Below are positions 1 to 64,000 of a stretch of DNA of 64,000 bases, piece by piece. The DNA is from Phyllobates terribilis (taxonomy: Eukaryota), in the NCBI RefSeq assembly GCF_046119375.1, contig NW_027362762.1:683798001-683862000 (forward strand). Reading direction: 5' to 3'. Positions within the stretch are counted from its first letter, which is position 1; each line of letters opens with the position of its first letter. Under the pieces are notes generated by a model that did no database searches, was not told the DNA's origin, and worked only from the letters and a program-made list of their open reading frames with translations. A program made the position numbers and the translations under genes.

Positions 1-555
1 CCCATGTCTCCATTTGTCTCCATCCTGCACCCAATGTCTCCATCCTGCACCCAATGTCTCCATCCTGCACCCAATGTCTCCATCCTGTCCCCAATGTGTC
101 CATCCTGCCCCCAATGTCTCCATCCTGTCCCCAATATCTCCATCCTGCCCCCAATATCTCTCCATTCTGCTTCATTGTCGCCATCCTGGCCCCATTGTCT
201 CCAATGTCTCCATTCTGCCTCCAATTTCTCCATCCTGCCCCCATGTTTCCATTTGTCTCCATCCTGCCCCCAATGTCTCAACTCTGCCCCAATGTCTCTC
301 CATTCTGCCCCCATGTCTCTCCATCCTGCCCCTCATGTTTCCATTCTGTCCCCAAAGTCTCCCATTCTGAACCCATGTTTCCATTTTGCTCCCAATGTCT
401 CACATTCTGCCCCATGTTTCCATTCTGCCCCCAATGTCTCACATTCTGCCCCATGTTTCCATTCTGCCCCCAATGTCTCACATTCTGCCCCATGTTTCCA
501 TTCTGCCCCCAATGTCTCACATTCTGTCCCCATGTTTCCATTCTGCCCCTTATGC
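1..555. repeat. Minisatellite with a ~19-20 bp unit (CCCAATGTCTCCATCCTGC), shifting to a ~39-bp unit after ~390
   Basis: Direct tandem repetition. It explains the overlapping Pro/Ser/Cys/His-rich ORFs at 4-699. Confidence 0.95.
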
Positions 556-11531: not shown

Positions 11532-12631
11532 TGACGCGCCCCCTGGGCCGTGGGGTACTCGGCAGCCAGGCCTCTGGTTGCTGGGGGATATCACCGTAGT
11601 TGGCCCGGTCCGTGACCCAGGGCGGTCAGTAAAAGGGGGGGAATAGTTTATAGGGGATTTGGAAAGTGTTTGTGATGCTACCTGTGGAATGCGGCTAAGG
11701 GGTGCCGCCGCTGCGGAGCAGTCCTCTGGAGCTGGTGTTACGGCAGCAGGGATGGTGCTGCTCTCCACAGGTAGAGCTAGCTCCAGGGCAGCGTAGGGTG
11801 TAATGGATGGTGTTGCAGGGGGGAGACGGCAGGATGGTCCCGGAGGAAAGACAGACGCTCACACGGGGGTAAGCTTCAGTACCTTTACTGGTGATGTTGC
11901 AGGCACGGTCCAGGGTACTCCAGGCGAAGGGCACACTTTTGGACTCTCCCCAGTGAGCGGGTATAGGGCCTCCTGATCCGTTGCTTTATTCTCTAAGCTT
12001 CTGACCTGCCTGGAGCTAGGCCTAGCTTGGTTACTGTCTCTCTTTGCACCTGCTGACCTGGTTATTGGGCCTTCACTTTGGAAATCACTCTCCCTGGATA
12101 CTGGGACCTCCGTGACTCCTAGCCCTGGTACTGTAATCAGCGTTTGGTGAACCTGGGACCTGTAGTCCTCCAGGGGTTCCGGTAGTTCCTACTGGGTATA
12201 AGGAGTCCCTGTAGGCGTGGACCCGGTGTCCGGTATATATATCGGGGTGAGCCTAGTATGCTCCTCTGCCCCCTTGCTACTTCTTCCTTCTCCTCTCACC
12301 TTCGGCCCACTCAAGTCCCTCACTAGGCCTTCACACGTGCTGTAGGCCTTGGCTCGCCTAAGCACAGCAGCCAGCTCGATGCCTCTTCGCTGCTCTCTGA
12401 GCGTCAGCATGCTCTCTGCTCACTCTGAGCTCTGTCCCTCTCTGTCTCTAAGCAGCAACTAATCTGAGCTGCCTGGCTCCACCCTCCCTTTATATATCCC
12501 TATCAGGGCTCCCTCTGCTGGTCTGAGGTGGTAGGGTGGAGGTGTGTGAATGTAGTGAGGGCCTCTTGTGGAGAAGTCCATCCATGAACCCTTCTGGGTT
12601 CTGTGGCACCAGTGCGCAGCAGGGCGCCACA
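11532..12631 (-). mobile_element. Gypsy-type solo LTR (1100 bp)
   Basis: TGACGCGCC...GGGCGCCACA ends, 4-bp TSD TTGG (11528-11531 and 12632-12635), and a TATA-like TATATAAA on the minus strand near 12490. Confidence 0.9.
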
Positions 12632-19676: not shown

Positions 19677-21577
19677 TAGTGTTGAGCCACCCCCGTAGTG
19701 TTCGGGTTCGGTTGGGTTCGTCGAACACCGTGATGTTCGTGGAACTGTTCGTCGAACACCTTAGAACACCATCGAACACCGTCGAACACCGTTAAAACCA
19801 ATGGCAGACAAACAAAAACACATAGAAACACATAGAAAACACCTTCAAAGGTGTCCAAAAGCTGACAAACTGCTCAGAAGACACTCTCTTTAAAAAAGCC
19901 GGCCGGCAATTCAGCAGCGGCATACACCGGTACCCGACAATTTAGACAAGACGGAATAGAGCATCACACATAGATTAGATAGATAGAAACATGTCAGTCA
20001 AATATATAAGAAGTACAGTGACAGTGTTGCTTACTGTACTTGTCATTTAGTGTTAAAGTATTTATTTAAAAAAATAATAGTGTTTTCATGCACCGTCTCT
20101 TTAAAAAAGCCGGCCGGCAATTCAGCATCGGTACCCAACAATTTATAACAGAAAGAATAGAGCATCACACATAGATTAGATAGATAGAAACATGTCAGTC
20201 ACATATATAAGAAGTACAGTGAGAGTGTTCATTACTGTACTTGTCATTTTGTGTTAAAATAAAGGATTTATTAAAAAAAAAATTGGCGTGGGGTTCCCCG
20301 TAATTTTAGTCTCTAGCGGAGGTTAAGCAGGCAGCTGGGGCAGATGTTTGAAGCCTGGGAAGGGGTTAATACCCACGGAGCTTCCCAGGCTACTAATATC
20401 AGCCCCCAGCTGAATACCTAGCCTTTACTAGCTATTAAAATGGGGGACCCCCAAAAAGATGACATGGGGTCCCCCCTATTTTAATAGCTAGCAAAGGCTA
20501 GGCAGACAGCTGGGGGCTGATATTAATAGTCCAGGAAGGGTGCCATGAATATTGGCCCCCTCCCAGGCTAGAAACACCAGCCGTCAGCCGCCCCAGAAAT
20601 GGCGCATCCGTAGGATGCGCCAATTCTGGCACTTAGCCTCGCTCTTCCCACTGCCCTGTAGCGGTGGCAGTGGGGTAATAGGGCTGGAGTTGATGTCAGC
20701 TTATAATGCCAGCTGACATCAAGCCCAGGTTAGTAATGGAGAGGCGTCTATAAGACACCCCCTTTACTAACCCCATAGTCAAAGTTAAAAAAAAACACAA
20801 ACACCCAGAATAAAGTCCTTTAATTGAAATAAACACACAATTCTTTATTGTTCTAAATTAAACCATACTTACCGTCACGCCCATTCCAGCTGAAGCCAAC
20901 GATCTCCTGCAATAAAAGTAAAATAATAAAGCAACATCATCCTTACCTTTCCATGGTTCCCACGACAGCTTCAGCTCTGCTACATTCACATGACAGGCTG
21001 GAGCGCAGCAGAACGCTGCCATCCAGCTTGCCATGCGGCAGACACTGAGAAGGGCAGGCATGCTTGCGCTCCTCAGTAGTGTTGAGCCACCCCCGTAGTG
21101 TTCGAGTTCGGTTCGGTCCGTCGAACACCCGTGTGTTCGCCGAACTGTTCGTCGAACTGTTCGTCGAACACCTTCGAACACCGTTAAAACCAATGGCAGG
21201 CAAACAAAAACACATAGAAACACATAGAAAACACCTTCAAAGGTGTCCAAAAGCTGACAAACTGCTCAGAAGACACAACTAACACATGGAAAAGTGACAA
21301 GTACATATAGTCATGCGAAAAGAAAAGAGGTGGAGGAGTAAAAGGAGGGGGAGACACAGATATAGGCATGTCATGCCCTTCTAAAATCCAAAAAGTGAGA
21401 AGCCGAGACGGCCAGTCCGCTCCTGCCCGTGCCACCTCCGTGTCGCCGGGTTTGTGCCAGAGCCGCGGTGAACCCTGACGGCCAGCCCCCCTCTCCCAAT
21501 ACTGGTGCCTGTCCGCTGGTGGGTCGAGAGAGCCCCCCTGTGGTGGAGGCAGCTCTAAGCTTTTTAATTTAAATTGT

Positions 21578-21848
21578 CCCTCTAATTTGAATGAATACAC
21601 TTTAAATCCATTTACAAGGATCTATTGGAGGGCAAGTCTCATGCCAGCAGCCGCGTAATTCCAGCTCCAGTAGCGTCCACTAAAGCTGCTGCAGTTAAAA
21701 AGCTTTTATAAGGATCGAGCTCGGCTGTCCACCGCAAGGCATCCTAGTGCCAGTCCCAGCCCCTATGCCTTGGGGTGCCTCCTGATGCTCTTCACTAAGT
21801 ATCCCGTGGTCCCGAAGCATTTCCTTTGAAAAAATTAAGTGTCCAAAC
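21578..21848 (+). pseudogene. 18S rRNA gene fragment (~270 bp, 530-loop region into V4) inside the hAT element
   Basis: TGGAGGGCAAGTC..TGCCAGCAGCCGCGTAATTCCAGCTCC..GCTGCAGTTAAAAAGCT..CCCGAAGC..TTTGAAAAAATTA is colinear with vertebrate 18S as I recall it. Confidence 0.93.
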
Positions 21849-21959
21849 TACAGGTGGTGTAGCTTGCTTAACAGCCGGGATAATCCGCTGACTAGCAGAC
21901 ACTGCTACTAGGCACAAAGTATTTCCTGGGCTAGATGCAGTTAAAAATTTGTAAGTAGA

Positions 21960-23792
21960 TACTCTCGTTGGATGCTGAGAAAGCATTCCATAGAGTCTCC
22001 TGGCACGCCATATATGATTCTCTTAAAAAGCTTGGGGTAGGGGTCTAGGGGACCCTTTTATAGCCAAAATCACGGCCCTGTATCACAATACGTCACCTAG
22101 GCTGAAGATAAATGGAACTGTAGCACCGAGGGCTCGGTTGCTACAGACGTATTGCACCTCACCCAGAGGTGTGATATCTCACTCTCAGATAAGGATGGAG
22201 TGTGGATCAGGACCCGACACCTGCATGCATTACACCACATTGCCGTGGGGCAGGGCGACCAATATGCCCCTGAGATGGGCACGACAGTCCCTGTCCCTGG
22301 CTGGAGTGGGGGGAGGGAACACTGAGGAAGGGGAACCCTGCAGTGCAGGAGCAGGGAGGAAGCAGTTCCTGGGTGCATTGAGAAGGGAGTATAAAAGGTG
22401 GGCACCATCTTAGTTCAGTGCAGAGAAGTCTGAGCAGAAGTGGCAGGGAGCAGGGGCTCTGCATGAGCTCTGCTCCGGAGGCGGGCCTAGTAACAGAGGC
22501 CCAGGCCTGCAAGAGGGAGAAGGAAGGAAGAGGAGCGGAGAAGGCTCCAGGAACGAGGAATGAAGGGATCCCAGGGGTGCGGACGGGCGAGTCGCCACCG
22601 CATGCCCGAATCCACCTGCGTGGAGGGGTCAGGCCAAAGGGGGAGACCGGTCCCCGAACTAGTGGAGGCAGGAAACGACCCTCAGCTAGAAACCGGAGGC
22701 TCTGACATTTTATGTGGCGCAGCCCCTTGCTCCACCCGCTAGGAAGGCACCACATAGGGTCAGGGAAACTGGCGCCAAGTTTACCAAGAGGAGGCCCGAG
22801 GCAGCCGGACAGAAGTGTTGGTAAGAAAGGCCAGACAAAGGACACACAAAGGGGGTCCTGTGAAGCGCTCCAAAGTTATCTGGGAGTTGTCTGAGCCCCT
22901 CACCTGGTGAGCACAGTACGACGTGGGCAGCCGTTACCTGCAGACGTGGTCTGGATAATAAGAACTGTGAGTAAAGGCCCTGAACTGCATCACTGACTCC
23001 GTGTCGTTACTGCTGCTGCCCTGCACCATCACCCCCATCCTCCGCATACACTGCCCTGAGGCTATACTCCTCCCGTGGGGAGTTATGCTACGCTCTGCTG
23101 CACCCACAACACCAGCCTTAGCGGTCTGCCCTGTAGCGGCGGTTCACTCTGACCGCAATCCACGGGTGGCGTAGTCGGACATTTAAACATCAAAACCACA
23201 TAAATAGTTCCGCCACTGGTTTGACCGCCCTGAGCCACGGAACCGGATCGCCGCCACGAAGACTACAACCACCAGCATCCACCAAAAAGGGTCCGGCTCC
23301 GGGTGTCCCAAGGCCCAGGGGGTGCGTCAGAACATTTTCATCACCTTTCACAATCACCAATGGGACAAGGCAGGGATGTCCTCTGTCCCCTCTCTTATAC
23401 ATCCTAGTGACGGAGCACCTGCTCTCATCAATTCGCCATAACCCCAATATTAGGTGGATTGAGGTGGGAGGCACCGAGTACAAGTGCTCTCTATTTGCTG
23501 ATGATGTCCTAGTATATATCACTCAATCACATATATCCATCCCTGCTGTTATGGCTGAAATAGATCACTTTGTTACATGGTAAAATTTTAAAATCAATGC
23601 AGCGAAGTCTGAGGCCCTCGATGTCTCCCTCCCTAAATCCATATAGGATTCCATCCAGTCCAACTTTCCCTTTGCCTGGCCCTCACAGGGTATCAAATAC
23701 TTAGGAATTCCTATTCATAGAGACCTCTCCCATCTATGTTATCTTAATTTTGGGCCCTTTATTGAACAATTCCATACAGACCACGGTTGGCA
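21960..23792 (+). pseudogene. Internal L1-clade ORF2 reverse transcriptase fragment split by a solo LTR
   Basis: SLDAEKAF, GTRQGCPLSPLL, LFADD and IKYLGI motifs. The reading continues across the LTR (LKING|TFSSPF). Confidence 0.9.
22119..23329 (+). mobile_element. Gypsy-type solo LTR (1211 bp)
   Basis: TG...CA ends, 4-bp TSD GAAC (22115-22118 and 23330-23333), TATAAAA at ~22390, and 3' part homologous to the LTR at 46485. Confidence 0.92.
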
Positions 23793-26700
23793 AGTTGGAA
23801 CTGTGAGATTCACTACGTGCACCACTGGTATTTTGTGGAAAAGCACATGTAAGATTCTGCAACAGTCTCTGCTGATACTCCTGCATGCGTGCATCCCTTT
23901 CTATGGCAGGAATAATTTCTGCAAATTTACTTTTGTACCGGGGATCTAACAGTGTGGCAACCCAGTAGTCAGGATTATTTCTAATTCTCACAATTCGAGG
24001 GTCATGTTGCAGGTAGTGCAGCAAGAAGGCACTCATGTGTGTTGCGCATCCAGGAGCACCAAGTCCCTGTTGTGTTGGTGGCGAGGTAACAATCATGCTT
24101 CCTTCCTCTGTCCTCTCCCCCCAACCTCGCACAACAGAAATGTGATCAAGGTCTCCTTCATCTGATGAGTCTTCCATCAGTTCGTCCTCCACTTCTTCCT
24201 GGGCTCCTGCACCTTCCTCACTAGTTTGGCTGCTACCATGCGCCCTGGTAAAATCATCTCCCCCACCCTCACATGCCTGCCGCCCTGGTGCTGCCGACCG
24301 TCTGGACCTTGCAGATGTTAGCCCTTCCACATACAACTCCTCCTCCTCTACTTCCTCCACCTCCTCTTGTGCCACCACCTGACTCCGAATTCTGTTTAAC
24401 ATGTGCTCCAGCATGTAAATCACCGGAATAGTCATGCTGATAATGGCATCGTCAGCACTAAACATCTTCGTCGCCATTTCAAAACTGTGCAGAAGGGTGC
24501 ATAGGTCCCTGATCTGAGACCACTCCTCCAGCGTGATTTGCCCCACCTCTGAATCTCGTTGGCCCAGGCTATACGTCAGAACGTATTGCACCAGGGCTTG
24601 TCGGTGCTGCCACAGTCGCTGCAACATGTGCAGAGTTGAATTCCACCGGGTAGGCACATCGCATTTTAGCCGGTGAAGTGGCAGGCCCAACAACTTCTGT
24701 AGAGATGTAAGTCGCTGAGCTGCGGGATGCGAACGGCGGAAGTGAGCACACAGCGACCGTGCTCTCTGCAGAAGGCCATCTAGTCTGGGATAGTGGGCTA
24801 AAAATTGCTGGACAACCAGGTTCAACACGTGAGCCATACAAGGCACGTGTGTGACATTGCCCCGGCGAAGGGCCGCACCCAGGTTTGCAGCATTGTCGCA
24901 CACGGCCTTCCCTGGTTTCAGGTCCAGTGGAGACAACCATTCATGAAATTGGTTCTCCAGAGCTGACCACAACTCCTCAGCTGTGTGACTCACATTTCCC
25001 AGACATTTCAATGTAAAAACCGCCTGATGACGTTGAGCCCTACTGCCAGCATAGTAAGGAGGTGTGCAGGATCCCTTCTGCGCAGTTAGAAAGCTTGTGG
25101 CATGACCAGACAGGCTTTGGGTACAGGTGGAAGACCGAGAGGAGGTTGAGGAGGCAGAAGCAGTGGAGGAAAAATGACATAAAGAGGATTGACGCACAAC
25201 TCGTGGGGACGGCAAGACTTGGACAGCAGCCCCTTGTCCTGCTGTCACCATAGTTACCCAGTGCCCAGTCAGCGACATGTAACGCCCCTGTCCATGCCTA
25301 CTCGTCCAAGTGTCTGTGGTGAAATGCACCCTGTCACACACAGAGTTTCTCAAAGAAGCGGTGATGTTGTGTGCGACATGCTGGTGGAGCGCAGGCACAC
25401 CTTTCTTTGAGAAGTAGTGCCGACTGGGCATCTGGTACTGGGGCACTGCGACGGACATAAGGTCTCGAAAATCCTCTGTGTCCACCAGGCGGAAAGGCAG
25501 CATTTCTGTAGCCAAGAGCTTGCAGATGGTGAAATTCAACCTCTTAGCTTTCTCATGGCTAGGAGGAAATGGTCTTTTACTTGTCCACATCTGAGGGACC
25601 GAGGGCTGGCTATTGTGCTTAGACGGGGTTGATAAGGGTGTCCCCGGCAAACTGCCGGTCTGTGAGGAAGATGCAGGCGGACATGTTAGGTTGCCTTGAT
25701 CCAAAGGTGGTGCTATCGATGTCGGACAGCGCTCAAGACCAGCTGGTGTTACCACCTCCAAAGAAAATGATGACCTGCCAATCACTCTGGCTGTTGCGGG
25801 TAAAGAGGTGGCAGGTCTGCGCCCCAAAACAGGTGTGACTGCTGTCCCCCCAGTCACAGAGGATGAAGAGGCCGCGGATGCACAAGATATGGCAGACGGT
25901 GGTTGGCCCGGCCGGCTAGACCGCATTGTAGCACACTGAGCTTCCCACTGCAACTTATGCTTCATGTCCATGTGCCGGTTCATGCATGAAGTACTCAAAC
26001 TATGTATTTTTTGGCCTCTACTTAGCTTTTGCTGACAAATGTTACAGATAACACGAGTTGGGTCATCTTTATCGATCTGAAAAAATGCCCAGGCTATGCA
26101 AGGCTTAGCACCCATGCGACCTGAAGAGCCACCACGTCTTGTGGTGAGAGGCAGAGTTGTGTTTGAGGATGCAGTTGTTGACGTGCTTCCAGTACTACGT
26201 CTCTGTCCAGGAAGGCGCAACCTGACCTCGTCGTCACTAGCATCTTCCTCCACCTCCTCTGCTGACCTCATCTCTTGGCTGACTGTGGGTTGACAGTAAG
26301 TGGGATCTCCGACCTCATCATCATCACCCTGTGCGTTATCACACCCGTCGTCCTCAGAGCCAACCTGTTCCTGCCCTGACAAAAAACTAAAGTTGTCGCT
26401 CCAATCAGGTATTTGAGTCTTATCATCGTCTTCCTCATTGTCTCCACCAACAGGAGTTACAGTTTGGGAATGAGGGTCTACATTATGGTCAGAACCTTCT
26501 GCGTCTGGTCCTGGATCCGACTCATAAAGATTCTGGGCATCAGTGCAGATCATTTCCTCGTCTGGATTCACAGAAGCGCTGGAGTCGACCTCTGATTCCC
26601 AGGATATAGTATGAGTAAACAGCTCTGCAGACTCAACCATCTGTTCTACCTCATACTCAGACGGGCAGCTGGAGATTTGGGAGCTGTGAGGAAGCAAGTG

Positions 26701-26870
26701 CGATTTGGGTGACACCTTTGAGGACTGGAGTATTTGTGATGTTGAAGTTGATGTGGATGAGAGCCCACTTAAAGGAGCACTTGATATCCGTTGAAGCACC
26801 TGCTGTTTTTGTGCCGCATCTGGAATTTGTAGCGATTAGCGTGGCCGTAAGAAAGGGATCTTATCACATT
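23793..26870 (-). pseudogene. hAT transposase with BED zinc finger; in-frame stop at 26836-26838 and truncated C-terminus
   Basis: WAFF..CNIC..RHMDMKH, TTDTWTS, CDNAAN, CMAHVLNL, CDVPTRWNST and ATLLDPRYK. The region carrying the catalytic Glu and dimerisation domain is absent. The last ~20 aa of the ORF-track product are antisense L1. Confidence 0.92.
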
Positions 26871-31552: not shown

Positions 31553-33180
31553 CAGTACAGACCAAAAGTTTGGACACACCTTCTCATTTAAAGATTTTTC
31601 TGTATTTTCATGACTATGAAAATTGTACATTCACACTGAAGGCATCAAAACTATGAATTAACACATGTGGAATTATATACTTAACAATAAAGTGTGAAAC
31701 AACTGAAAATATGTCTTATATTCTGGGTTCTTCAAAGTAGCCACCTTTTGCTTTGATGACGGCTTTGCACACTCTTGGCATTCTCTTGATGAGCTTCAAG
31801 AGGTAATCACCGGAAATGGTCTTCCAACAATCTTGAAGGAGTTCCCAGAGATGCTTAGCACTTGTTGGCCCTTTTGTCTACACTCTGCGGTCCAGCTCAC
31901 CCCAAACCATCTCGATTGGGTTCAGGTCTGGTGACTGGAGGCCAGGTCATCTGGCGTAGCACCCCATCACTCTCCCTCTTGGTCAAATAGCCCTTACACA
32001 GCCTGGAGGTATGTTTGGGGTCATTGTCCTGTTGAAATATAAATGATGGTCCAACTAAACGCAAACCGGATGGAATAGCATGCCGCTGCAAGATGCTGTG
32101 GTAGCCATGCTGATTCAGTATGCCTTCAATTTTGAATAAATCCCCAACAGTGTCACCAGCAAAGCACCCCCACACCATCACACCTTCTCCTCCATGCTTC
32201 ACAGTGGGAACCAGGCATGTAGAGTCCATCCGTTCACCTTTTCTGCGTCGCACAAAGACACGGTGGTTGGAACCAAAGATCTCAAATTTGGACTCATCAG
32301 ACCAAAGCACAGATTTCCACTGGTCTAATGTCCATTTCTTGTGTTCTTTAGCCCAAACAAGTCTCTTCTGCTTGTTGCCTGTCCTTAGCAGTGGTTTCCT
32401 AGCAGCTATTTTACCATGAAGGCCTGCTGCACAAAGTCTCCTCTTAACAGTTGTTGAAGAGATGTGTCTGCTGCTAGAACTCTGTGTGGCATTGACCTGG
32501 TCTCTAATCTGAGCTGCTGTTAACCTGCGATTTCTGAGGCTGGTGACTCGGATAATCTTATCCTCAGAAGCAAAGGTGACTCTTGGTCTTCCTTTCCTGG
32601 GGCGGTCCTCATGTGAGCCAGTTTCTTTGTAGCGATTGATGGTTTTTGCAACTGCACTTAGGGACACTTTCAAAGTTTTCCCAATTTTTTGGACTGACTG
32701 ACCTTCATTTTTTAAAGTAATGATGGCCACTTGTTTTTCTTTACTTAACTGCTTTTTTCTTGCCATAATACAAATTTTAACAGCCTATTCAGTAGGACTA
32801 TCAGCTGTGTATCCACCAGAGTTCTGCACAATACAACTGATGGTCCCAACCCAATTTATAAGGCAAGAAATCCCACTTATTAAACCTAACAGGGCACACC
32901 TGTGAAGTGAAAACCATTTCCGGTGACTACCTTTTGAAGCTCATCAAGAGAATGCCAAGAGTGTGCAAAGCAGTCATCAAAGCAAAAGGTGGCCACTTTG
33001 AAGAACCTAGAATATAAGACATATTTTCAGTTATTTCACACTTTTTTGTTAAGTATATAATTCCACATGTGTTAATTCATAGTTTTGATGCCTTCAATGT
33101 GAATGTACAATTTTCATAGTCATGAAAATACAGAAAAATCTTTAAATGAGAAGGTGTGTCCAAACTTTTGGTCTGTACTG
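31553..33180 (-). mobile_element. Second DD38E Tc1-like copy
   Basis: TA-CAGTACAGACC...GGTCTGTACTG-TA; same family as 1104-2733. Confidence 0.95.
31716..32766 (-). pseudogene. DD38E transposase with a 2-bp deletion near 31935
   Basis: Open from MARKKQ through FQQDNDPKH; the frame shifts after TWPP. Confidence 0.92.
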
Positions 33181-46484: not shown

Positions 46485-47517
46485 TGTGGCACCCCAGGGG
46501 TCTGGTTTCCACAGTAATAGCAATATTACGTCTGTGAGCAGGTGGGAGGTTTCCTGGTCAGACATCCTATGCATGCCACACCTCCTGCCCAGTCCTGGGA
46601 GGGGAAGAACTTCCCCTATATAAAGCTGGGGCTGAGGCAGGGTTAGAGAGTAGAGAAAGAGTGAGAGAACACAGACAGAGACACAGTCTGGTCTGTAGTG
46701 GAGCAGCTTTAGGAACAAGAAAGATCAGGAGCTCTGTGGGAGCTGTGCTAAAAAGAGATCAGGGGCTGGAAGCTGTAGAGCTCGCCCTGATTGAAGAGTT
46801 CTTACCGGACCCGGGGTCCGAGGCTGTGGGGACTAATCCTTACCCAGCAGCAGAAACCGCCCGGCAGGGGATTTCAGGTCCTCTGGCCAAGAAACCCGAA
46901 GGCACGGTCACACGCAAGGGACCAGCACCGCGACGTGGAGCGGAAGTTACCAAAAGGCCCCGAGTCACCGGCCATACGGGTGAGCACCACACGGTACACT
47001 CAGGGACGTGGGCTACTTTTACCCGCCTCTAGCAAGGTAGCCAGAAGAGTACGATTAGTTGGGGAGGCCTACAACTCTGCCTGGCCAGGGGAGATCCCAT
47101 CAGCTCACGGACTGACCAGGCCCCGATCGCTAGCCAGTACTCCGGGAGGGTCTACCTTGTCACCAGTAAAGACCTAAAACTACACCGCACCGTCTCTGAG
47201 TGGTTCCTGCTACCCCCCTTCAAACACGTCGGCTGCCCTGAGGCCATACCCCTCCCGTTGGGGGTTATACCATCCCCGCTGCACAACCGTATCACCGGCC
47301 TCAGCGGTCTGCCCTGCAGCGGCGGTCTCATGACCGCATTCAACGGGTGGCGTAGTCGAACATTCTAAACATCTACTGCTAAATACTGCCGCTCAGTTTG
47401 ACTCCCTGGGCACGGACCGGGTCACCGCCACGAGGACTACTACCCCCAACAGATCCGGCTCCGGGTATTCCCTGCGTGTGCAACGCTGCACCACAGCACA
47501 GGCCCAGGGGCGCGTCA
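46485..47517 (+). repeat. 5' LTR
   Basis: TGTGGCACC...GCGCGTCA, TATATAAA at ~46615, and a candidate AGTAAA poly(A) signal at ~47164. Confidence 0.97.
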
Positions 47518-47521
47518 ACTT

Positions 47522-47540
47522 TGGCGTAGTCGGCAGGATT
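47522..47540 (+). promoter_or_regulatory. Primer binding site complementary to the tRNA-Ser (AGA/TGA-type) 3' end
   Basis: TGGCGTAGTCGGCAGGATT, 4 nt after the LTR, complementary to ...AATCCTGCCGACTACG-CCA. Confidence 0.92.
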
Positions 47541-47730: not shown

Positions 47731-47956
47731 GAAGACGCCGCGCGGGAAGAAGAGGGGCGTGGACTCCGAAAGCGCGCGAGAACTGAAGCTCCGCCTCACG
47801 TCCGGACGTTGCGTAAGGTCCTGGAAGGAGCCCAGCAGACGCTGACGTCACAGGAGCGCGACGGAAGGTCCTCAACCCTGACGATCCACTGCGGAACCGC
47901 GGCCTACGGAAGAGGATCATCGCAAGGTAGGCCACGGTCCACTAGGGGGGAGGAGG

Positions 47957-48937
47957 ATGTCGGATACGGAGGAGAGCTTCACTGCCACAGCCACCGCCAG
48001 CGCCGCCGCTGCTGCGGTCATGCCTTTCACCATGCCCTATATCCCGGGGGCAGCCTGGCTACCCCAGTACTCAGGGGAGTCACATACCCTGAATGACTTT
48101 AGAGAAAAGCTGGATAGCCTCTTCCAGGTGTACCCCCTCACAGAAGAGCAAAAAGTGAGCATCCTGGTGGCCCAACTAACCGGGGCAGCCCAAAGGGAGG
48201 TAAAGTCCTGGCCACCTGGGAGGAGGACTGTCGCAGGGATATTAACCCGGCTGAAGGACACCTTTGATACCCGCACCTCAGCCGAGATTAAGCTTAGATT
48301 CTACGGGTGCAAACAGCGAGCACATGAGAATATAAGGGACTATGCACTAAACCTACAAGAGGCCCTGAGAGCCATTAAGCAGACCGACCCTGACGGCGTG
48401 AGAAACGAGGACAGGCTGTTGACCGAACAATTTATAGAGGGACTATATTGCAATGCCCACCGAACCCAGTTGCGGGCAATGGCCTTACAGGATCCTCATC
48501 TGGACTTTGCACAGTTCAAGGACAGAGCCATCCGGGTGCTCCGAGAACCGGCACCGGGTGGCGTGGTGACCCACAGGCGCCCTACTACCGCTTACCACCA
48601 GGAGGCGGCGCCCTTGTCGGCAGGGCCTGTGGGAGCTGACGCGCAGGCTTTGAACAATGACCCGGCTCCAGACCTGTACCATCAGGTCCAAGAGCTAGCT
48701 AAAAGCGTTGCTGCGCTAACCCGAACTGTGCAGTCTTTACAGGTTTCTGCTCCAGGGAAGATCCAGCTGGCATCCGGACCGGAGGACATCCCGTGGCGTC
48801 GACCAAGGAGGACCCCACCGGCCAGAGGAAGACCCAGCGACCGATACAACGAGGACGGACAACCCATCTGCCGCCGCTGCAATCAACCCGGACATATGGC
48901 AAGGTACTGTCCTTTAAACTGGCACAACCTGGGGTAG
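47957..48937 (+). CDS. gag: Gag, 326 aa, with a CCHC zinc knuckle
   Basis: Open ORF containing CRRCNQPGHMARYC. Confidence 0.93.
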   Translation: MSDTEESFTATATASAAAAAVMPFTMPYIPGAAWLPQYSGESHTLNDFREKLDSLFQVYPLTEEQKVSILVAQLTGAAQREVKSWPPGRRTVAGILTRLKDTFDTRTSAEIKLRFYGCKQRAHENIRDYALNLQEALRAIKQTDPDGVRNEDRLLTEQFIEGLYCNAHRTQLRAMALQDPHLDFAQFKDRAIRVLREPAPGGVVTHRRPTTAYHQEAAPLSAGPVGADAQALNNDPAPDLYHQVQELAKSVAALTRTVQSLQVSAPGKIQLASGPEDIPWRRPRRTPPARGRPSDRYNEDGQPICRRCNQPGHMARYCPLNWHNLG

Positions 48938-48971
48938 AGGGCCAACCCCCAGGAATAAGATCACCAGGCCC
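48913..48971 (+). promoter_or_regulatory. Predicted -1 programmed ribosomal frameshift signal
   Basis: T TTA AAC in gag phase, an 8-nt spacer, stem CCTGGGG/CCCCAGG, and a second helix GGGCC/GGCCC. Confidence 0.8.
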
Positions 48972-51900
48972 ATCAAACTGGCGTGACAAATACGTGGGAG
49001 GACGTCCAGTCTTGCCTGTGGTACTGGATGGCATTCCTATGAGTGCCCTACTTGACACCGGGTCACAGGTCACCACCATCCCGTACGTGCTCTTTAAGCA
49101 GTACTGGAATGACTCGGATATAACCCGCTACCCTGACGACGACTTGAGTATCATCGCCAGCAATGGTCAACCCGTGCCACAGATCGGATTCAAAGAGATG
49201 ACCATTAAAGTCGGTAGAGTCGAACTGGCAGCACAGGGACTGATCATTGTAGACATTGACAAGCGCGAGAGTCACCCAAAGATAACTCTAGGAACTAATG
49301 TGATTGAAAATTGTCTTGCAGAGGTGATTTTCATTTTACAGCAGGTTGCCAAGAACGCCAGCTCCGGCCAGCAGCGAGTGCTCCAAAAAGAGATCCGGGC
49401 ACTGATGCGGCGGCAACAGGTGGAACTCTCCGGTGGTGAGATTGGAAGCGTGAGAATGTGTGACCCTTTCCCTATTGCCATGCCCCCAAAAAGTGAAATG
49501 ATGATTTGGTGCCGGGCAGCTATTGGTCTAAGAGGTAGAGACTACCAAGCAATGGTAGAACCCATCTACTCAGACAGTAGGCCCACCATTTTGACAGCAC
49601 GGGGGGTGGTTGATGTACGCCATGGGAGGGTGCCCGTTCGCATAATAAATATCGGGAAGAGGGAAGTGTACCTGCCCCGGTATGCTACGCTAGCCAAATT
49701 GTATACCATCAATCAGAATTCTGTACAGGCCGTGGAACCCTTGCCTCCATCTCAACCAGAGGAAGGTAACGGCTCTAAGAAACCAATGGAGGACTGGTGT
49801 CAGCAACTACATCTGGGTACTGACTCCACTCCCTCACACCAGAAACAAGGAGTCTATCGGGTGGTTCAAGAGTACGAGAGAGTGTTTAGTAAACACCCGT
49901 TAGACTTCGGGCGAGTAAAAGGGGTAGAACACCACATCCCCACGGGAGACCATCCTCCCATAAAGGAGAGATACCGACCCGTACCCCCTGCACACTACCA
50001 ACACGCCAAGGGGATGCTTAGAGACATGAAGGAGGCTGGAGTAATCAGGGATAGCTGTAGCCCCTGGGCAGCTCCACTAGTCTTGGTTAAAAAGAAAGAC
50101 AACACTATGAGAATGTGTGTAGATTACCGGAAAATCAACCGTATCACACACAAAGATGCGTACCCCTTACCAAGGATAGAGGAGTCTTTGGCTGCTTTAA
50201 AATCTGCTAACTTCTTCTCCACTTTGGATCTCACTAGCGGGTACTGGCAGGTTCCTGTAGCAGAGGCGGACCGGGAGAAGACCGCATTCACCACCCCGAT
50301 GGGACTTAGCGAGTTTACCTGCATGCCGTTCGGACTCTGCAACGCACCAGGAACCTTCCAACGATTGATGGAATGCTGTCTGGGACACCGAAACTTCGAG
50401 ACGGTCCTGTTATACCTGGACAATGTCATCGTCTACTCCAAGACCTACGAGGACCACCTGAAACACCTGGCAGAAGTGTTCGAAGCCCTGGCAAACTACG
50501 GCCTAAAGGTGAAACCCTCCAAGTGTCACCTCCTGAAACCAAAGGTGCAGTACCTGGGACACGTGGTGAGTGCTGACGGAGTGGCTCCCGACCCTGATAA
50601 GATCACCGCAATTAAGGAATGGCCAAGCCCCTCCAGCGTAAAGGAAGTGCGGCAGTTCCTCGGGTTGGTAGGCTACTACCGAAGATTCATTCCCGGTTTC
50701 ACCAAAAAGGCAGCTCCTATGCAGGACCTCCTGATAGGCCAGTCCAGGAAGGCCAAGAACCAGAAGCCGCCCTTCAGATGGGAGAAGCTGGAAGAAGAGT
50801 CCTTCCGCCAGCTGAAGATGGCCCTCACGGGGGATGAAATCCTGGCGTACCCGGATTACAGCCAGCCCTTTATCCTCTACACCGACGCAAGTAACATCGG
50901 GCTAGGAGCCGTACTGTCCCAGATCCAGCAGGGGAAAGAACGGGTAATTGCTTACGCCAGCCGAAAACTGCGACCCACCGAAAGAAACCCTGAGAATTAC
51001 AGCTCATTCAAGCTAGAGTTCCTGGCAGTGGTGTGGGCAGTCACCGAACGCTTTAGGCACTACCTCGCCTCTTCCCGGTTCACCGTGTACACGGATAACA
51101 ACCCGTTGACACATCTGGACACTGCAAGACTCGGTGCCCTGGAGCAGAGATGGATGGCCCGCCTGTCCAACTATGAGTTCACGATCAAATACCGGGCAGG
51201 ACGCTCCAATACCAACGCGGATGCCTTGTCCAGAATGCCAAACCTACCGGACGTAGGGGAAGATCCAGAGGAACTGGAAGAAGTTGAACTCCCCGCGTTC
51301 CACCGTCATGGGACTATCCAGTATTCCCACCGTGTAAGGGGTAAGCAATCTGCTACGTTCAACCCCTTACCTCATTACAACTGGGCGGAAATGCAAGACA
51401 GTGACCCCGCCGTCCGACTGGTGAAGGAGATGCTGACTCAGCCAGATGCCCGCCTTGACCCAGACGCTCCGGAGGAGGCCAAGCAACTGTGGGTTGAGAA
51501 GAGTCGACTGTTCCTTTACAAGGGGAAGTTGTGCCGCAGAATGGTTAACTCCCGGACGCATGAACTGATCTGGCAAGTAGTGGTGCCAAGAAGAGACGCG
51601 GCTATGGTACTGGAGGCATACCACGACGGAGCTGGGCACTTCGGATGGAAGAAGCTGGAGTTCCTGCTGCGCGGGCGGTTCCACTGGGTAGGCATAAGAG
51701 GAACCATCGAGAGGTGGTGCAGAGACTGTGGCCCATGCAACCTAAGAAGGAAGGACCGTGCTAGCCAGAAGACTCCCCTGCAGTCCATCGTCACCAAGCA
51801 GCCGTTGGAACTGGTAGCCTTGGATCATGTAAAACTGACCCCCAGCAGAAGTGGCTACGTCTATGCGTTAACCATCGTGGATCACTACTCCCGGTTTTTG

Positions 51901-53049
51901 GTTGTCGTCCCCGTCAAGGACTTAACGGCTCAAACAGCAGCTAGAGCCTTCCAGCAGCACTTCTGCCGTCCACACGGATACCCAGAGCAGGTGCTGACGG
52001 ACCAGGGACCTGCCTTTGAAGCGGAAGTCTTCCAGGAGTTCTGTACTCTGTATGGCTGCCGGAAGATAAGAACAACACCCTATCATCCGCAAACCAATGG
52101 GCTCTGCGAGAAAATGAACCAGGTGGTGATAGATCTTCTGAAAACATTGCCCCTGGAAGAACGCAATCTGTGGCCTGAGAAACTGCCTGATCTGGTGGAC
52201 CTATACAACCACATCCCGGTAGGTTCTACCAACTGTACCCCGGCTTACCTAATGAGAGCAAGACCTGGTAAGCTTCCTGTTGATCTGGAGATGGGAGTTC
52301 TGACACCTGAGGACACTTCACCAGAAGCAGACTGGGACACAGAAAGGCAGCAGCAGTACCGGAAAGTACAGGAGAGCGTGGAGCGAAGTCTCTGTCAAGC
52401 TAGAGAAAGACAGGAGAAGACTTACAACCAGTGTGCTCCCGCTGTTCCCCTGGTACCTGGAGAGCAGGTCTTGAAGAGGAAGAGACGGCTCCACAAGTTG
52501 GACGACCAGTGGGAGAAGGACCCGTACACCGTACTGCCCTCAAGCCATGAGAACCCGAAAGTCTGCACAATCAGTAAGGATGGAGGAGAAACCACAGCCA
52601 TTGTATCCCGAGATCACCTGAAGAAGTGTCCCGAACAGCTACGGAACCCTGAAGAAGAACAAGAAGACCCTCGACCCGCAGAGGAAAGGGAAGATATGGT
52701 CAGTACTGTGCTCGGAGACTTCCCTCGGTCTTGGACTCAAGTCAATGGCGCTGTTGTGGTACCCGTCCTCACCTTCCTCCAACCAGCATCCCAAGTGCCT
52801 ACGGAGAAACAGGTAGAGCTGGAAGAGCAGCCGGTCCAGGAGGCAGAAGACCCCACACAAGCAGACCAGGAGGATCAACCCTCTGCGTATAGTGAGCCTG
52901 CCGTACCCCTAGTGAGCCAAAGAGCCCGTAGACAGCTGCCCAGTTTACCTTTGACAGCTCCTACACCTGGTAGCTCAGGACCAGTCAGTCAGCTCCGTAG
53001 GTCCACTAGAGCCACTAGAGGCCAGTTGCCCGTACGTTGGAGGATCTAG
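48916..53049 (+). CDS. pol: Pol polyprotein (protease, RT, RNase H, integrase) in the -1 frame relative to gag
   Basis: LLDTGS; PWAAP; YLDN (YxDD altered); TDAS/E/TDNNPL; HHCC; D, D(35)E; GPY/F-like tail; no chromodomain seen. Confidence 0.93.
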   Translation, partial: KLAQPGVEGQPPGIRSPGPSNWRDKYVGGRPVLPVVLDGIPMSALLDTGSQVTTIPYVLFKQYWNDSDITRYPDDDLSIIASNGQPVPQIGFKEMTIKVGRVELAAQGLIIVDIDKRESHPKITLGTNVIENCLAEVIFILQQVAKNASSGQQRVLQKEIRALMRRQQVELSGGEIGSVRMCDPFPIAMPPKSEMMIWCRAAIGLRGRDYQAMVEPIYSDSRPTILTARGVVDVRHGRVPVRIINIGKREVYLPRYATLAKLYTINQNSVQAVEPLPPSQPEEGNGSKKPMEDWCQQLHLGTDSTPSHQKQGVYRVVQEYERVFSKHPLDFGRVKGVEHHIPTGDHPPIKERYRPVPPAHYQHAKGMLRDMKEAGVIRDSCSPWAAPLVLVKKKDNTMRMCVDYRKINRITHKDAYPLPRIEESLAALKSANFFSTLDLTSGYWQVPVAEADREKTAFTTPMGLSEFTCMPFGLCNAPGTFQRLMECCLGHRNFETVLLYLDNVIVYSKTYEDHLKHLAEVFEALANYGLKVKPSKCHLLKPKVQYLGHVVSADGVAPDPDKITAIKEWPSPSSVKEVRQFLGLVGYYRRFIPGFTKKAAPMQDLLIGQSRKAKNQKPPFRWEKLEEESFRQLKMALTGDEILAYPDYSQPFILYTDASNIGLGAVLSQIQQGKERVIAYASRKLRPTERNPENYSSFKLEFLAVVWAVTERFRHYLASSRFTVYTDNNPLTHLDTARLGALEQRWMARLSNYEFTIKYRAGRSNTNADALSRMPNLPDVGEDPEELEEVELPAFHRHGTIQYSHRVRGKQSATFNPLPHYNWAEMQDSDPAVRLVKEMLTQPDARLDPDAPEEAKQLWVEKSRLFLYKGKLCRRMVNSRTHELIWQVVVPRRDAAMVLEAYHDGAGHFGWKKLEFLLRGRFHWVGIRGTIERWCRDCGPCNLRRKDRASQKTPLQSIVTKQPLELVALDHVKLTPSRSGYVYALTIVDHYSRFLVVVPVKDLTAQTAARAFQQHFCRPHGYPEQVLTDQGPAFEAEVFQEFCTLYGCRKIRTTPYHPQTNGLCEKMNQVVIDLLKTLPLEERNLWPEKLPDLVDLYNHIPVGSTNCTPAYLMRARPGKLPVDLEMGVLTPEDTSPEADWDTERQQQYRKVQESVERSLCQARERQEKTYNQCAPAVPLVPGEQVLKRKRRLHKLDDQWEKDPYTVLPSSHENPKVCTISKDGGETTAIVSRDHLKKCPEQLRNPEEEQEDPRPAEEREDMVSTVLGDFPRSWTQVNGAVVVPVLTFLQPASQVPTEKQVELEEQPVQEAEDPTQADQEDQPSAYSEPAVPLVSQRARRQLPSLPLTAPTPGSSGPVSQLRRSTRATRGQLPVRWRI

Positions 53050-53402
53050 GTGTTTAGACTGTTTATTTGTATTTATCTGTTTTCTGTTACTTGTAAATAA
53101 TTGTGTATTTCTAGTTATGTTATAGATGTCGTTTATGGATTATCCGGAATCCTTTGTACATATGTTGGAGCGTAACCCAGGAAAGGACTAAGACTGTTAA
53201 GGACTCGGGGTAGGACAGACCCCTACCTGGTTACGGCTTCCGGTCTCATGGTGAAATGGACACCTTAGTTTTCTTCAAAGACTGCACCCGGTTGCGGACA
53301 TTCCGTGACCATCCTAATGTGTTTTTCTTTATTGTACTGTTTCTGTTTTTACTTGTTATGTTTTATAAAAATATGTTTAGTCCCGGAGTACTAAATTTCA
53401 CT

Positions 53403-53411
53403 AGGGGGGAA
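53403..53411 (+). promoter_or_regulatory. Polypurine tract
   Basis: AGGGGGGAA immediately before the 3' LTR. Confidence 0.85.
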
Positions 53412-54444
53412 TGTGGCACCCCAGGGGTCTGGTTTCCACAGTAATAGCAATATTACGTCTGTGAGCAGGTGGGAGGTTTCCTGGTCAGACATCCTATGCA
53501 TGCCACACCTCCTGCCCAGTCCTGGGAGGGGAAGAACTTCCCCTATATAAAGCTGGGGCTGAGGCAGGGTTAGAGAGTAGAGAAAGAGTGAGAGAACACA
53601 GACAGAGACACAGTCTGGTCTGTAGTGGGGCAGCTTTAGGAACAAGAAAGATCAGGAGCTCTGTGGGAGCTGTGCTAAAAAGAGATCAGGGGCTGGAAGC
53701 TGTAGAGCTCGCCCTGATTGAAGAGTTCTTACCGGACCCGGGGTCCGAGGCTGTGGGGACTAATCCTTACCCAGCAGCAGAAACCGCCCGGCAGGGGATT
53801 TCAGGTCCTCTGGCCAAGAAACCCGAAGGCACGGTCACACGCAAGGGACCAGCACCGCGACGTGGAGCGGAAGTTACCAAAAGGCCCCGAGTCACCGGCC
53901 ATACGGGTGAGCACCACACGGTACACTCAGGGACGTGGGCTACTTTTACCCGCCTCTAGCAAGGTAGCCAGAAGAGTACGATTAGTTGGGGAGGCCTACA
54001 ACTCCGCCTGGCCAGGGGAGATCCCATCAGCTCACGGACTGACCAGGCCCCGATCGCTAGCCAGTACTCCGGGAGGGTCTACCTTGTCACCAGTAAAGAC
54101 CCAAAACTACACCGCACCGTCTCTGAGTGGTTCCTGCTACCCCCCTTCAAACACGTCGGCTGCCCTGAGGCCATACCCCTCCCGTTGGGGGTTATACCAT
54201 CCCCGCTGCACAACCGTATCACCGGCCTCAGCGGTCTGCCCTGCAGCGGCGGTCTCATGACCGCATTCAACGGGTGGCGTAGTCGAACATTCTAAACATC
54301 TACTGCTAAATACTGCCGCTCAGTTTGACTCCCTGGGCACGGACCGGGTCACCGCCACGAGGACTACTACCCCCAACAGATCCGGCTCCGGGTATTCCCC
54401 GCGTGTGCAACGCTGCACCACAGCACAGGCCCAGTAGCGCGTCA
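53412..54444 (+). repeat. 3' LTR
   Basis: About six substitutions versus the 5' LTR, counted by eye. Confidence 0.97.
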
Positions 54445-61445: not shown

Positions 61446-61976
61446 GCTTTAAAGATGAAATTTTATTATTATAATCAGTGCTGAGCCACCCCCGTAGTGT
61501 TCGAGTTCTGTTCGGTTCGTTGAACACCCATATGTTCGCCAAACTGTTCGTCGAACTGTTCGTCGAACACCTTCGAACACCGTTAAAACCAATGGCAGGC
61601 AAACAAAAACACATAGAAACACATAGAAAACACCTTCAAAGGTGTCCAAAAGCTGACAAACTGCTCAGAAGACATAACTAACACATGGAAAAGTGACAAG
61701 TACATATAGTCATGCGAAAAGAAAAGAGGTGGAGGAGTAAAAGGAGGGGGAGACACAGATATAGGCATGTCATGCCCTTCTAAAACCAAAAAAGTGTGAA
61801 GCCGACACGGCCAGTCCGTTCCTGCCCGTGCGACCTCCGTGTCGCCGGGTTTGTGCCAGAGCCGCGGTGGACCCTGACGGCCAGCCCCCCTCTCCCAATA
61901 CTGGTGCCTGTCCGCTGGTGGGTCGAGCAAGCCCCCCTGTGGTGGAGGCAGGTCTAAGCTTTTTAATTTAAATTGT

Positions 61977-62246
61977 CTCTCTAATTTGAATGAATACACT
62001 TTAAATCCTTTTACAAGGATCTATTGGAGGGCAAGTCTCATGCCAGCAGCCGCGTAATTCCAGCTCCAGTAGCGTCCACTAAAGCTGCTGCAGTTAAAAA
62101 GCTTTTATAAGGATCGAGCTCGGCGGTCCACCGCAAGGCGTCCTACCGCTAGTCCCAGCCCCTATGCCTTGGGGTGCCTCCTGATGCTCTTCACTGAGTA
62201 TCGCGGGGTCCCGAACCATTTCCTTTGAAAAAATTAAGTGTCCAAA
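61977..62246 (+). pseudogene. 18S rRNA fragment, copy 2
   Basis: Same block as 21578-21848. Confidence 0.93.
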
Positions 62247-62517
62247 CTACAGGTGGTGTAGCTTGCTTAACAGCTGGGATAATCCGCTGACTAGCAGACA
62301 CTGCTACTAGGCACAAAGTATTTCCTGGGCTAGATGCAGTTAAAAATTTGTAATTAGATACTCTCGTTGGATGCTGAGAAAGCATTCCATAGAGTCTCCT
62401 GGCACGCCATATATTATTCTCGTAAAAAGCTTGGGGTAGGGGTCTAGGGGACCCTTTTATAGCCAAAATCACGGCCCTGTATCGCAATACGTCACCTAGG
62501 CTGAAGATAAATGGAAC

Positions 62518-63709
62518 TGTAGCACCCCGAGGGCTCGGTTGCTACAGAGGTATTGCACCTCACCCAGAGGTGTGATATCTCACTCTCAGGTAAGGATGGA
62601 GTGTAGATCAGGACCCCGACACCTGCATGCATTACACCACATTGCCGTGGGGCAGGGCGACCAATATGCCCCTGAGATGGGCACGACAGTCCCTGTCCCT
62701 GGCTGGAGTGGGGGGAGGGAACACCGAGGAAGGGGAACCCTGTAGTGCAGGAGCAGGGAGGAAGCAATTCCTGGGTGCATTGAGAAGGGAGTATAAAAGG
62801 TTGGCACCATCTTAGTTCAGTGCAGAGAAGTCTGAGCAGAAGTGACAGGGAGCAGGGGCTCTGCATGAGCTCTGCTCCGGAGGAGGGCCTAGTAACAGAG
62901 GCCCAGGCCTGGAAGAGGGAGAAGGAAGGAAGAGGAGCGGAGAAGGCTCCAGGAACGAGGAACGAAGGGATCCCAGGGGTGCGGACGGGCGAGTCGCCAC
63001 CGCACGCCCGAATCCACCTGCATGGAGGGATCAGGCCAAAGGGGGAGACCGGTCCCCGAAACTAGTGGAGGCGGGAAACGACCCTCATTTTATGTGGCGC
63101 AACCCCTCGCTACACCCGCTAGGAAGGCACCACATAGGGTCAGGGAAACTGGCACCAAGTTTACCCAGAGGAGGCCCGAGGCAGCCGGACAGAAGCGTTG
63201 GTAAGAAAGGCCAGACAAAGGACACACAAAGGGGGTCCTGTGAAGCGCTCCAAAGTTATCTGGGAGTTGTCTGAGCCCCTCACCTGGTGAGCACAGTATG
63301 ATGTGGGCAGCAGTTACCTGCAGAAGTGGTCTGGATAATAAGAACTGTGAGTAAAGGCCCTGGACTGCATCACTGACTCCGTGTCGCTACTGCTGCTGCC
63401 CTGTACCATCACCCCCATCCTCCACATACACTGCCCTGAGGCTATACTCCTCCCGTGGGGAGTTATACTACGCTCTGCTGCACCCACAACACCAGCCTCA
63501 GCGGTCTGCCCTGCAGCGGCGGTTCACTCTGACCGCAATCCACGGGTGGCGTAGTCGGACATTTAAACATCAAAACCACATAAATAGTTCCGCCACTGGT
63601 TTGACCGCCCTGAGCCACGGATCCGGGTCGCCGCCACGGAGACTACAACCACCTGCATCCACCAAAAAGGGTCCGGCTCCAGGTGTCCCAAGGCCCAGAG
63701 AGCGTGTCA
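62518..63709 (+). mobile_element. Solo LTR, copy 2, at the identical site in the L1 fragment
   Basis: TSD GAAC (62514-62517 and 63710-63713). Confidence 0.92.
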
Positions 63710-64000
63710 GAACATTTTCATCACCTTTCATAATCACCAATGGGACAAGGCAGGGATGTCCTCTGTCACCTCTCTTATACATCCTAGTGACGGAGCACCT
63801 GCTCTCATAAATTCGCCATAACCCCAATATTAGGTGGATTGAGGTGGGAGGCACCGAGTACAAGTGCTCTGCATTTGCTGATGATGTCCTAGTATATATC
63901 ACTCAATCACATATATCCATCCCTGCTGTTATGGCTGAAATAGATCACTTTGTTACATGGTCAAATTTTAAAATCAATGCAGCGAAGTCTGAGGCCCTCG

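Follow-up and report, generated by a model that had tools for sequence, protein, structure and literature searches.

A Ty3/Gypsy retrotransposon of the frog Phyllobates terribilis carries, inside each of its long terminal repeats (LTRs), a partial second copy of its own primer-binding site (PBS). The copy, which we call the motif, was studied in a 64,000-nt stretch of DNA (contig NW_027362762.1, forward-strand positions 683,798,001 to 683,862,000; hereafter the window, whose own numbering is used throughout). It is 10–14 nt long and changes type in step with two other sites, the PBS and a match, close by, to the 5′ end of the primer tRNA, which we call element 2. Motif and element 2 are real and selected, and together they would be a new form of extended tRNA-primer binding. 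We consider the motif likely to be one arm of a non-priming docking site for tRNA-Ser on the element's RNA, with a probability of about 0.5. The whole analysis covers one frog genome of 10.6 Gb, in which the family carrying the module has more than 69,000 PBS-bearing copies.

A partial PBS copy that follows the primer

In the 5′ LTR (46485–47517, plus strand) the motif lies at 47348–47358 on the same strand and complements the final 11 nt of the tRNA-Ser that serves as primer (CCA, discriminator and 3′ strand of the acceptor stem). The true 18-nt PBS, for a tRNA-Ser with a GTAGTCG-type acceptor stem, lies 174 nt further on at 47522–47539 (plus strand) and is the complement of the 3′ ends of tRNA-Ser genes (L093, L094). 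The 11-mer TGGCGTAGTCG occurs exactly at 23167, 47348, 47522, 54275 and 63547 of the window. These five matches compare with 0.38 expected, and at least five were reached in 0 of 100 shuffles. A sequence-only reading of the window had reported the motif, the PBS and the copy in the 3′ LTR (54275–54285), all of which are exact, and 12-nt matches in two solo LTRs (23167–23178 and 63547–63558), which are present. It had taken the persistence of the motif in these solo LTRs as a sign of selection. That evidence counts only once, because the two LTRs share their flanks and are one duplicated insertion rather than independent witnesses. They sit in one 2,547-nt block, 95.8% identical including the flanks, which was also seen in two of 14 random 10-kb stretches (L098, L110). 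Selection itself finds its support in covariation and conservation.

Two tRNA-Ser species have 3′ ends that match two PBS types, named A and C. The first begins with GTAGTCGTGGCC and has the anticodon TGA (genes L093, L094); the second begins with GTCACGGTGGCC and has the anticodon CGA (gene L063). Exact patterns of LTR end plus PBS number 65,289 for type A, to which the element in the window belongs, and 4,289 for type C. A third solo LTR in the window (11532–12631, minus strand), overlooked in the earlier reading, has a different sequence at the position homologous to the motif. It belongs to a type C family (primer tRNA-Ser CGA), with a decayed type C motif at 11668–11680 and element 2 at 11590–11601. 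In its relatives both PBS and motif are of type C, and the motif is up to 14 nt long. This type C motif opened up a test of covariation.

The motif follows the PBS type throughout the genome. Exact counts, with the motif 125–175 nt ahead of the PBS, gave 59,508 copies with motif and PBS both of type A and 4,372 with both of type C. Only two copies had an A motif with a C PBS, and three a C motif with an A PBS; these are counts of copies and not of independent events. When copies were chosen by the PBS alone (the first 30 per type, 59 distinct), the motif was within one mismatch of its own PBS in 29/30 (A) and 22/29 (C), and within one mismatch of the other type in 0/59. As a control, elements with another tRNA-Ser PBS were inspected. 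Of these, 17/18 have unrelated LTRs and no motif copy, and the 18th (L084) has a type A LTR in which the PBS is switched and the motif is not. Single copies with a switched PBS (L084, L176–L180) retain the old motif, which shows that the motif is not rewritten automatically. A further PBS type is present at 26 loci, 24 of them distinct. No copy is seen at 18, and six, all of one subfamily, have a stretch with 1–2 mismatches that lies in G-rich sequence. An unrelated short-LTR family with another tRNA-Ser PBS (L349, L350, L351, L359, L362, L363) has a PBS-like 11-mer with 1–2 mismatches about 120–150 nt upstream, again in G-rich sequence, which may be chance or a second case.

For conservation, 149 elements were collected, some of them chosen by the motif; 14 rearranged ones were removed and the rest clustered at 92% into 87 representatives. 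The motif is the best conserved run within the 340 nt aligned. In type A the first ten motif columns are 93–100% conserved; conservation is 44% over the following 40 nt and 73% over the 40 nt ahead of the motif. The CpGs of the motif are retained. Over the last five columns, about 5% of type C match. The exact PBS-matching run is 10–12 nt in 40/42 type A representatives and at most 14 nt in the 39 of type C. The motif falls short of the full 18-nt complement of the tRNA 3′ end that a functional second PBS would have. Since the motif covaries with the PBS type and is the best conserved run, selection on it is supported. The sequence-only reading had named two results that would speak against it, a motif that does not covary with PBS type and one no better conserved than the flanking U5 (unique 5′) region. 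Within this genome, neither was found.

The hexamer AGTAAA, a likely poly(A) signal judged by sequence, is an exact match at 47165–47170 (plus strand). As the earlier reading had noted, the motif lies downstream of it: AGTAAA is present 139–227 nt upstream of the motif in 79/81 representatives, and a hexamer downstream in 6/81. The conserved hexamer upstream of the whole module would make the module part of U5, and hence present only at the 5′ end of the RNA. The placement in U5 claimed before is thus consistent with the position of AGTAAA, and we infer it from this hexamer. A CA dinucleotide stands 4–5 nt before the motif, as at the true LTR end.

A 22-nt pattern of the tRNA 3′ end had 18 matches (L061–L072, L091–L096), of which 15 are elements and not tRNA genes. 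In these the PBS extends into the tRNA by up to about 50 nt, as fixed read-through beyond the usual 18-nt stop.

Element 2, the predicted fold and the history of the switch

Element 2 lies about 80 nt downstream of the motif, at 47427–47440 (plus strand) in the 5′ LTR. It is complementary to nt 1–11 of the primer tRNA, that is, the 5′ acceptor strand plus nt 8–11, here with a 3-nt bulge, and it switches with the PBS type. The helix with the tRNA is an unbroken 11 bp in most type C copies and in a group that we call family 4; the main type A group shows a bulge of 2–5 nt, and one subfamily has a single mismatch. Element 2 is preserved via several different sequence solutions. It is predicted to prefer the cognate tRNA over the other in 28/30 type A copies (by a small margin) and in 25/29 type C copies. 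Positions 8–11 (plus position 7 in type C) pair with the tRNA, and not with the motif or the PBS in the same register. Old or basal type A copies such as L236 have the type C element 2 plus three added bases. This explains the type A bulge and suggests that the change ran from C to A.

A scan of 8-nt windows along each tRNA gave a clear excess of complementarity over shuffles only at the two ends of the tRNA. The D loop and the variable arm gave weaker peaks, which fall on stems of the element itself; at the T arm and anticodon no complementarity above shuffles was found in the region. A fossil copy of a whole antisense tRNA embedded in the LTR was considered and rejected, since only nt 1–12 and the last 11–14 nt match.

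The region upstream of the motif (47236–47347, plus strand) is predicted to form a structured domain. It has a long stem (47236–47244 with 47298–47307), hairpins and a 7-bp pseudoknot helix, in which a hairpin loop at 47254–47260 would pair with 47341–47347 and which ends right at the first base of the motif. The consensus structure from an alignment of 56 representatives has 29 pairs, 96.5% paired and 16 with compensatory changes. None of 500 shuffles scored as high, in a test that leans in favor of the structure because the structure came from the same alignment. The pseudoknot helix is 96.7% paired, with compensatory changes in two of its seven pairs. The motif is unpaired in the consensus. 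In many type A subfamilies a stretch at 47384–47392 (plus strand) is able to fold back on the motif; pairing between motif and spacer averages about 3.5 bp in type A ensembles. A further predicted stem, formed by 47399–47411 (plus strand) and the LTR end (47502–47517), encloses element 2 and would place it next to the PBS. Its median energy is −22.2 kcal/mol, compared with −13.8 kcal/mol for shuffles (56 sequences). A self-cleaving ribozyme was considered for the pseudoknotted domain, and a scan of the LTR with Rfam covariance models lent it no support. The scan gave three matches (E 1.2–8.5), all far under the gathering score and none over the module.

A tree built from U5 columns, with these traits excluded, has the motif type changing twice: the main type A group falls within C1, and family 4 among C2. 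In the pol tree type A groups with C1, apart from C2; all of them share one clade (100/100), separate from the remaining frog and fish proteins in the tree. Together the two trees point to one certain and one probable switch of all three sites. The parts of the LTR further upstream fail to align between most groups. From −340 to −190, family 4 shows a link to C2 (median 41–46 bits) but none to the main type A group (0). The elements of family 4, which are of type A, about 3 kb long and non-autonomous, have kept the module (L321–L328); gag or pol matches were found in none of the eight copies fetched. Many other copies of types A and C also have no gag within 1.5 kb of the PBS, yet have kept the module. 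A long tandem array of family 4 lies at G000:C1:438.86–440.0 Mb, with dozens of copies in about 1.1 Mb.

Possible roles of the module

The sequence-only reading had proposed three ideas: an auxiliary primer-binding or strand-transfer element, a decoy for tRNA-derived fragments (tRFs), or a fossil PBS. The auxiliary primer-binding element is the best of these, but the motif is not a working priming site. Motif context followed by a full 18-nt PBS occurs five times genome-wide: one motif is overwritten by 18 nt (L171), two copies have motif-to-PBS junctions (L172, L174), and two are other deletions. The junctions in L172 and L174 are not distinguishable from deletions, and no product primed at the motif was recognized among these five matches. 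Because a full PBS is almost never found at the motif, the motif does not serve as a second primer site, and productive priming from it is negligible.

Strand transfer at the motif is seen, as a rare error. The genome has 72 copies with the order PBS, remainder of U5, PBS, in which the 18-nt PBS is spliced onto U5 at the motif, compared with the 65,289 type A copies. Thirty such copies were read (L368–L397; also L069). The LTR end and the native motif stand upstream in 28/30; 20/30 resume their own U5 at motif +18/+19, 8/30 continue with the U5 of another subfamily, and 2/30 are other. In these copies the plus-strand intermediate has landed on the motif by mistake, and the joins to another subfamily's U5 are a record of jumps between co-packaged elements. 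The 72 products thus record both the 18-nt end of the plus-strand intermediate and the jumps between subfamilies. Their number means that the motif carries a cost of about 0.1%. Such errors offer a one-step route for the origin of the motif or for a change of its type.

In the docking that we propose, the motif would take the 3′ acceptor strand of the primer tRNA and element 2 the 5′ strand. We infer all of the pairing steps from modeling. Each arm would grip one strand of the acceptor stem, and together they would keep the stem open, with the T arm unmelted. The tRNA's 3′ end would then pass to the stronger true PBS (about −37 kcal/mol predicted for the 18-bp PBS duplex, about −21 kcal/mol for the motif). 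The 5′ end would stay on element 2, which the long stem would bring beside the PBS. The clamp would act before or during initiation, helping to open or load the primer tRNA. While docked on the motif, the 3′ end would lie right against the pseudoknot helix, which would make it a poor primer. Such a module would make primer choice strict, and a change of primer would force all three sites to change together. A bolder version, which we hold only tentatively and think somewhat doubtful, is an RNA-encoded tRNA opener in a vertebrate Gypsy radiation, in which the pseudoknot-capped PBS copy and the arm against the tRNA 5′ end unzip the acceptor stem and hand it to the true PBS.

Several points weigh against the docking. 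Every pairing is a prediction, and U5 is assigned from the conserved AGTAAA. Folds of single sequences mostly bury the motif, with unpaired probabilities of 0.24 (A) and 0.41 (C), in a model that leaves out the pseudoknot. Element 2 has two mismatches in the C2b subfamilies. In type A its advantage for the cognate tRNA is small (median −15.9 vs −15.0 kcal/mol) and requires bulges of 2–5 nt. The tRNA is the better predicted partner of element 2, over motif or PBS, in 81/81 representatives, but this comparison is biased because element 2 was located as the best tRNA site. The motif lies inside a block that is already conserved (73% over the 40 nt upstream in type A), and the conservation sample includes copies chosen by the motif itself. 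The approximately unbiased test does not reject one origin for type A (p-AU 0.096), and there are only two primer types in one genome.

Another explanation needs no tRNA on the motif at all. The motif could be an intramolecular switch, a decoy for those stretches of the LTR that could pair with the PBS (element 2 and the one in the spacer), and so keep the true PBS free. Each half of element 2 finds a complement in the motif, type A spacers hold the stretch that folds back on it, and such a switch would force covariation with the PBS too. The halves of element 2 stand in swapped order, so that only 5–6 bp could form at once, and the predicted pairing of motif and element 2 is below 0.4 bp on average. 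Moreover, the type C motif extends 2–3 nt beyond the pairing with element 2, with matches of 0.92 and 0.72 at PBS positions 12–13. We regard this switch as unlikely. There is also a small chance that a second tRNA molecule sits on the motif and, like the tRNA bridges of Ty3 and Drosophila gypsy, bridges or stabilizes the dimer of the RNA or helps to package it. Motif and PBS compete for one tRNA end, so that both can be filled only by two tRNAs; the predicted motif duplex is −19 to −26 kcal/mol, and bridging has been shown in Drosophila gypsy (PMC1635307). The known bridges, however, use two different regions of one tRNA.

Two further explanations start from the mis-transfer products, and we consider both improbable, to the same degree. 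The motif could be a fossil PBS without function that is held in step by mis-transfer copying the PBS onto its position. The 72 spliced copies, the overwritten motif of L171 and the CA ahead of the motif all fit, and a fossil can account for the origin of the motif, though not for its switching with the primer. Overwriting is seen once in about 64,000 copies and leaves 18 nt, compared with 10–14 nt in the population. Motif CpGs are kept, conservation of the motif already points toward lower substitution than in the spacer, and element 2, which mis-transfer could not copy, switches nevertheless. Alternatively, the motif could be selected as a landing pad for plus-strand strong-stop DNA, as an intermediate or recombination aid in second-strand transfer. 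The 28 duplications that resume a U5 at the motif, 20 their own and eight another subfamily's, show that landing occurs, also between elements. It concerns about 0.1% of copies and leaves U5 duplicated, normal products bear no trace of it, and element 2 is left unexplained. That the motif serves as a decoy, diverting 3′ tRNA fragments from blocking or silencing the PBS, is highly improbable. Such fragments do target PBS sequences, and their repression can be seed-independent (10.64898/2026.01.22.698655). The motif is predicted to bind far more weakly than the PBS, and, being on the same RNA, it adds a target, from which no benefit is apparent. Element 2 complements the tRNA 5′ end, which these fragments lack. 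A protein-binding site at the DNA level was set aside as the role of the motif, as element 2 would be unexplained.

Known systems and the surroundings of the element

Comparisons with published systems refer to the accessible parts of the sources cited. The closest is feline immunodeficiency virus (FIV), in which a U5 stem-loop pairs with the extreme 5′ nucleotides of tRNA-Lys3 and is thought to control initiation (Miller et al. 2001, via PMC3230847). Element 2 likewise is a U5 site complementary to the extreme 5′ end of the primer, within a predicted enclosing stem. A second PBS copy is not described there, whereas here it occurs in a Gypsy retrotransposon and covaries naturally with a primer switch. 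In HIV-1, the primer activation signal (PAS) and the A-rich loop, both located in U5 upstream of the PBS, pair with the primer's T arm or anticodon (PMC3185550, PMC11181671, PMC11251516) and must change with the PBS for a stable primer switch. The sites described here also change with the PBS when the primer changes. They match the two strands of the acceptor stem and not the T arm or anticodon, and complements of the T-arm 5′ strand, which define the PAS, showed no excess over shuffles.

Ty3, Ty1 and Drosophila gypsy have a bipartite or two-site PBS with an extra short tRNA-binding site, 11 nt in gypsy (PMC5371799, PMC1635307). The present element is likewise of the Ty3/Gypsy type with an additional short site. 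The extra sites in those elements bind the tRNA elsewhere and, for Ty3 and gypsy, are located at the 3′ end of the RNA; here the predicted site repeats the PBS itself and lies about 150–180 nt upstream of it. Binding of a different tRNA region applies to element 2 and not to the motif. HIV-1 also has a tRNA-Lys3-like sequence in U3-R that promotes minus-strand transfer (Piekna-Przybylska et al. 2010, via PMC6468702, PMC11241228). It is similar in being LTR-embedded tRNA complementarity in antisense-tRNA order over about the length of a tRNA. In our case the matches are confined to the two ends, between which the element has structure of its own, and U5 is the probable location. MAL-like HIV-1 isolates (14%) have part of the PBS duplicated, downstream of it and outside the LTR (PMC3185550). 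The partial copy in the frog element is also near the PBS, but on its upstream side and within the LTR, and there it is near-universal and agrees with the PBS in type.

A type-matched partial PBS copy in U5 capped by a pseudoknot was not found described in the open literature, a scope outside which subscription papers, Repbase and GyDB lie; the accessible parts of PMC12789967 and PMC6278860 contain nothing on the module. Nor is the tRNA-opener strategy, if true, among the priming strategies found described there. A natural three-site primer switch would then be recorded in more than 60,000 genomic copies, with intermediates. What role pairings outside the PBS play in primer choice has been disputed for decades on the basis of forced HIV-1 mutants, whose results conflict (PMC3185550). 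In this frog, evolution itself switched from one tRNA-Ser species to another, and which sites followed can be read from the genome at base resolution. The intermediates and the rare mismatched copies serve as natural controls, and the question of primer choice becomes testable with short RNAs and cross-matched tRNAs.

The nearest annotated reverse transcriptase (RT) is a Phyllobates terribilis protein with 98% identity. Relatives in other anurans are mostly 56–73% identical, and those in teleosts about 54–61%. In 80 metagenome loci with RT relatives (39–55% identity), no tRNA-Ser PBS and no credible PBS repeat were found, which does not imply absence elsewhere. In viral contigs PBS matches numbered 0 and 1 (unrelated), and no RT relative turned up.

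The host element has two LTRs beginning with TG and ending with CA, a 4-nt TATA target duplication, the PBS and a polypurine tract. The 5′ LTR is 1,033 nt long and differs at six positions from the 3′ LTR (53412–54444, plus strand), which has its element 2 at 54354–54367. The frames are in Ty3/Gypsy order and on the plus strand: gag (47882–48937), with a weak PNMA match and a CCHC zinc knuckle, and then pol (48703–53049), with RT, RNase H and integrase. The polypurine tract region (53399–53411, plus strand) stands directly ahead of the 3′ LTR. A similar stretch at 47940–47957 (CACTAGGGGG...), right before the gag start, echoes the context of the true tract.

The solo LTR at 22119–23329 (plus strand) belongs to another type A subfamily, has GAAC on both sides and carries its element 2 at 23253–23266. 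Its duplicate at 62518–63709 (plus strand) has element 2 at 63633–63646. Around them is a larger repeated block (21076–26000 and 61477–64000), with copies elsewhere that are 96–99% identical. Next to it is a frame of 1,033 codons with a BED zinc finger (23734–26835, minus strand). The window also contains three Tc1-type transposase frames (1267–2256, 9090–10166 and 31897–32784) and several satellite arrays with units of 20, 30, 31, 49 and 110 nt.
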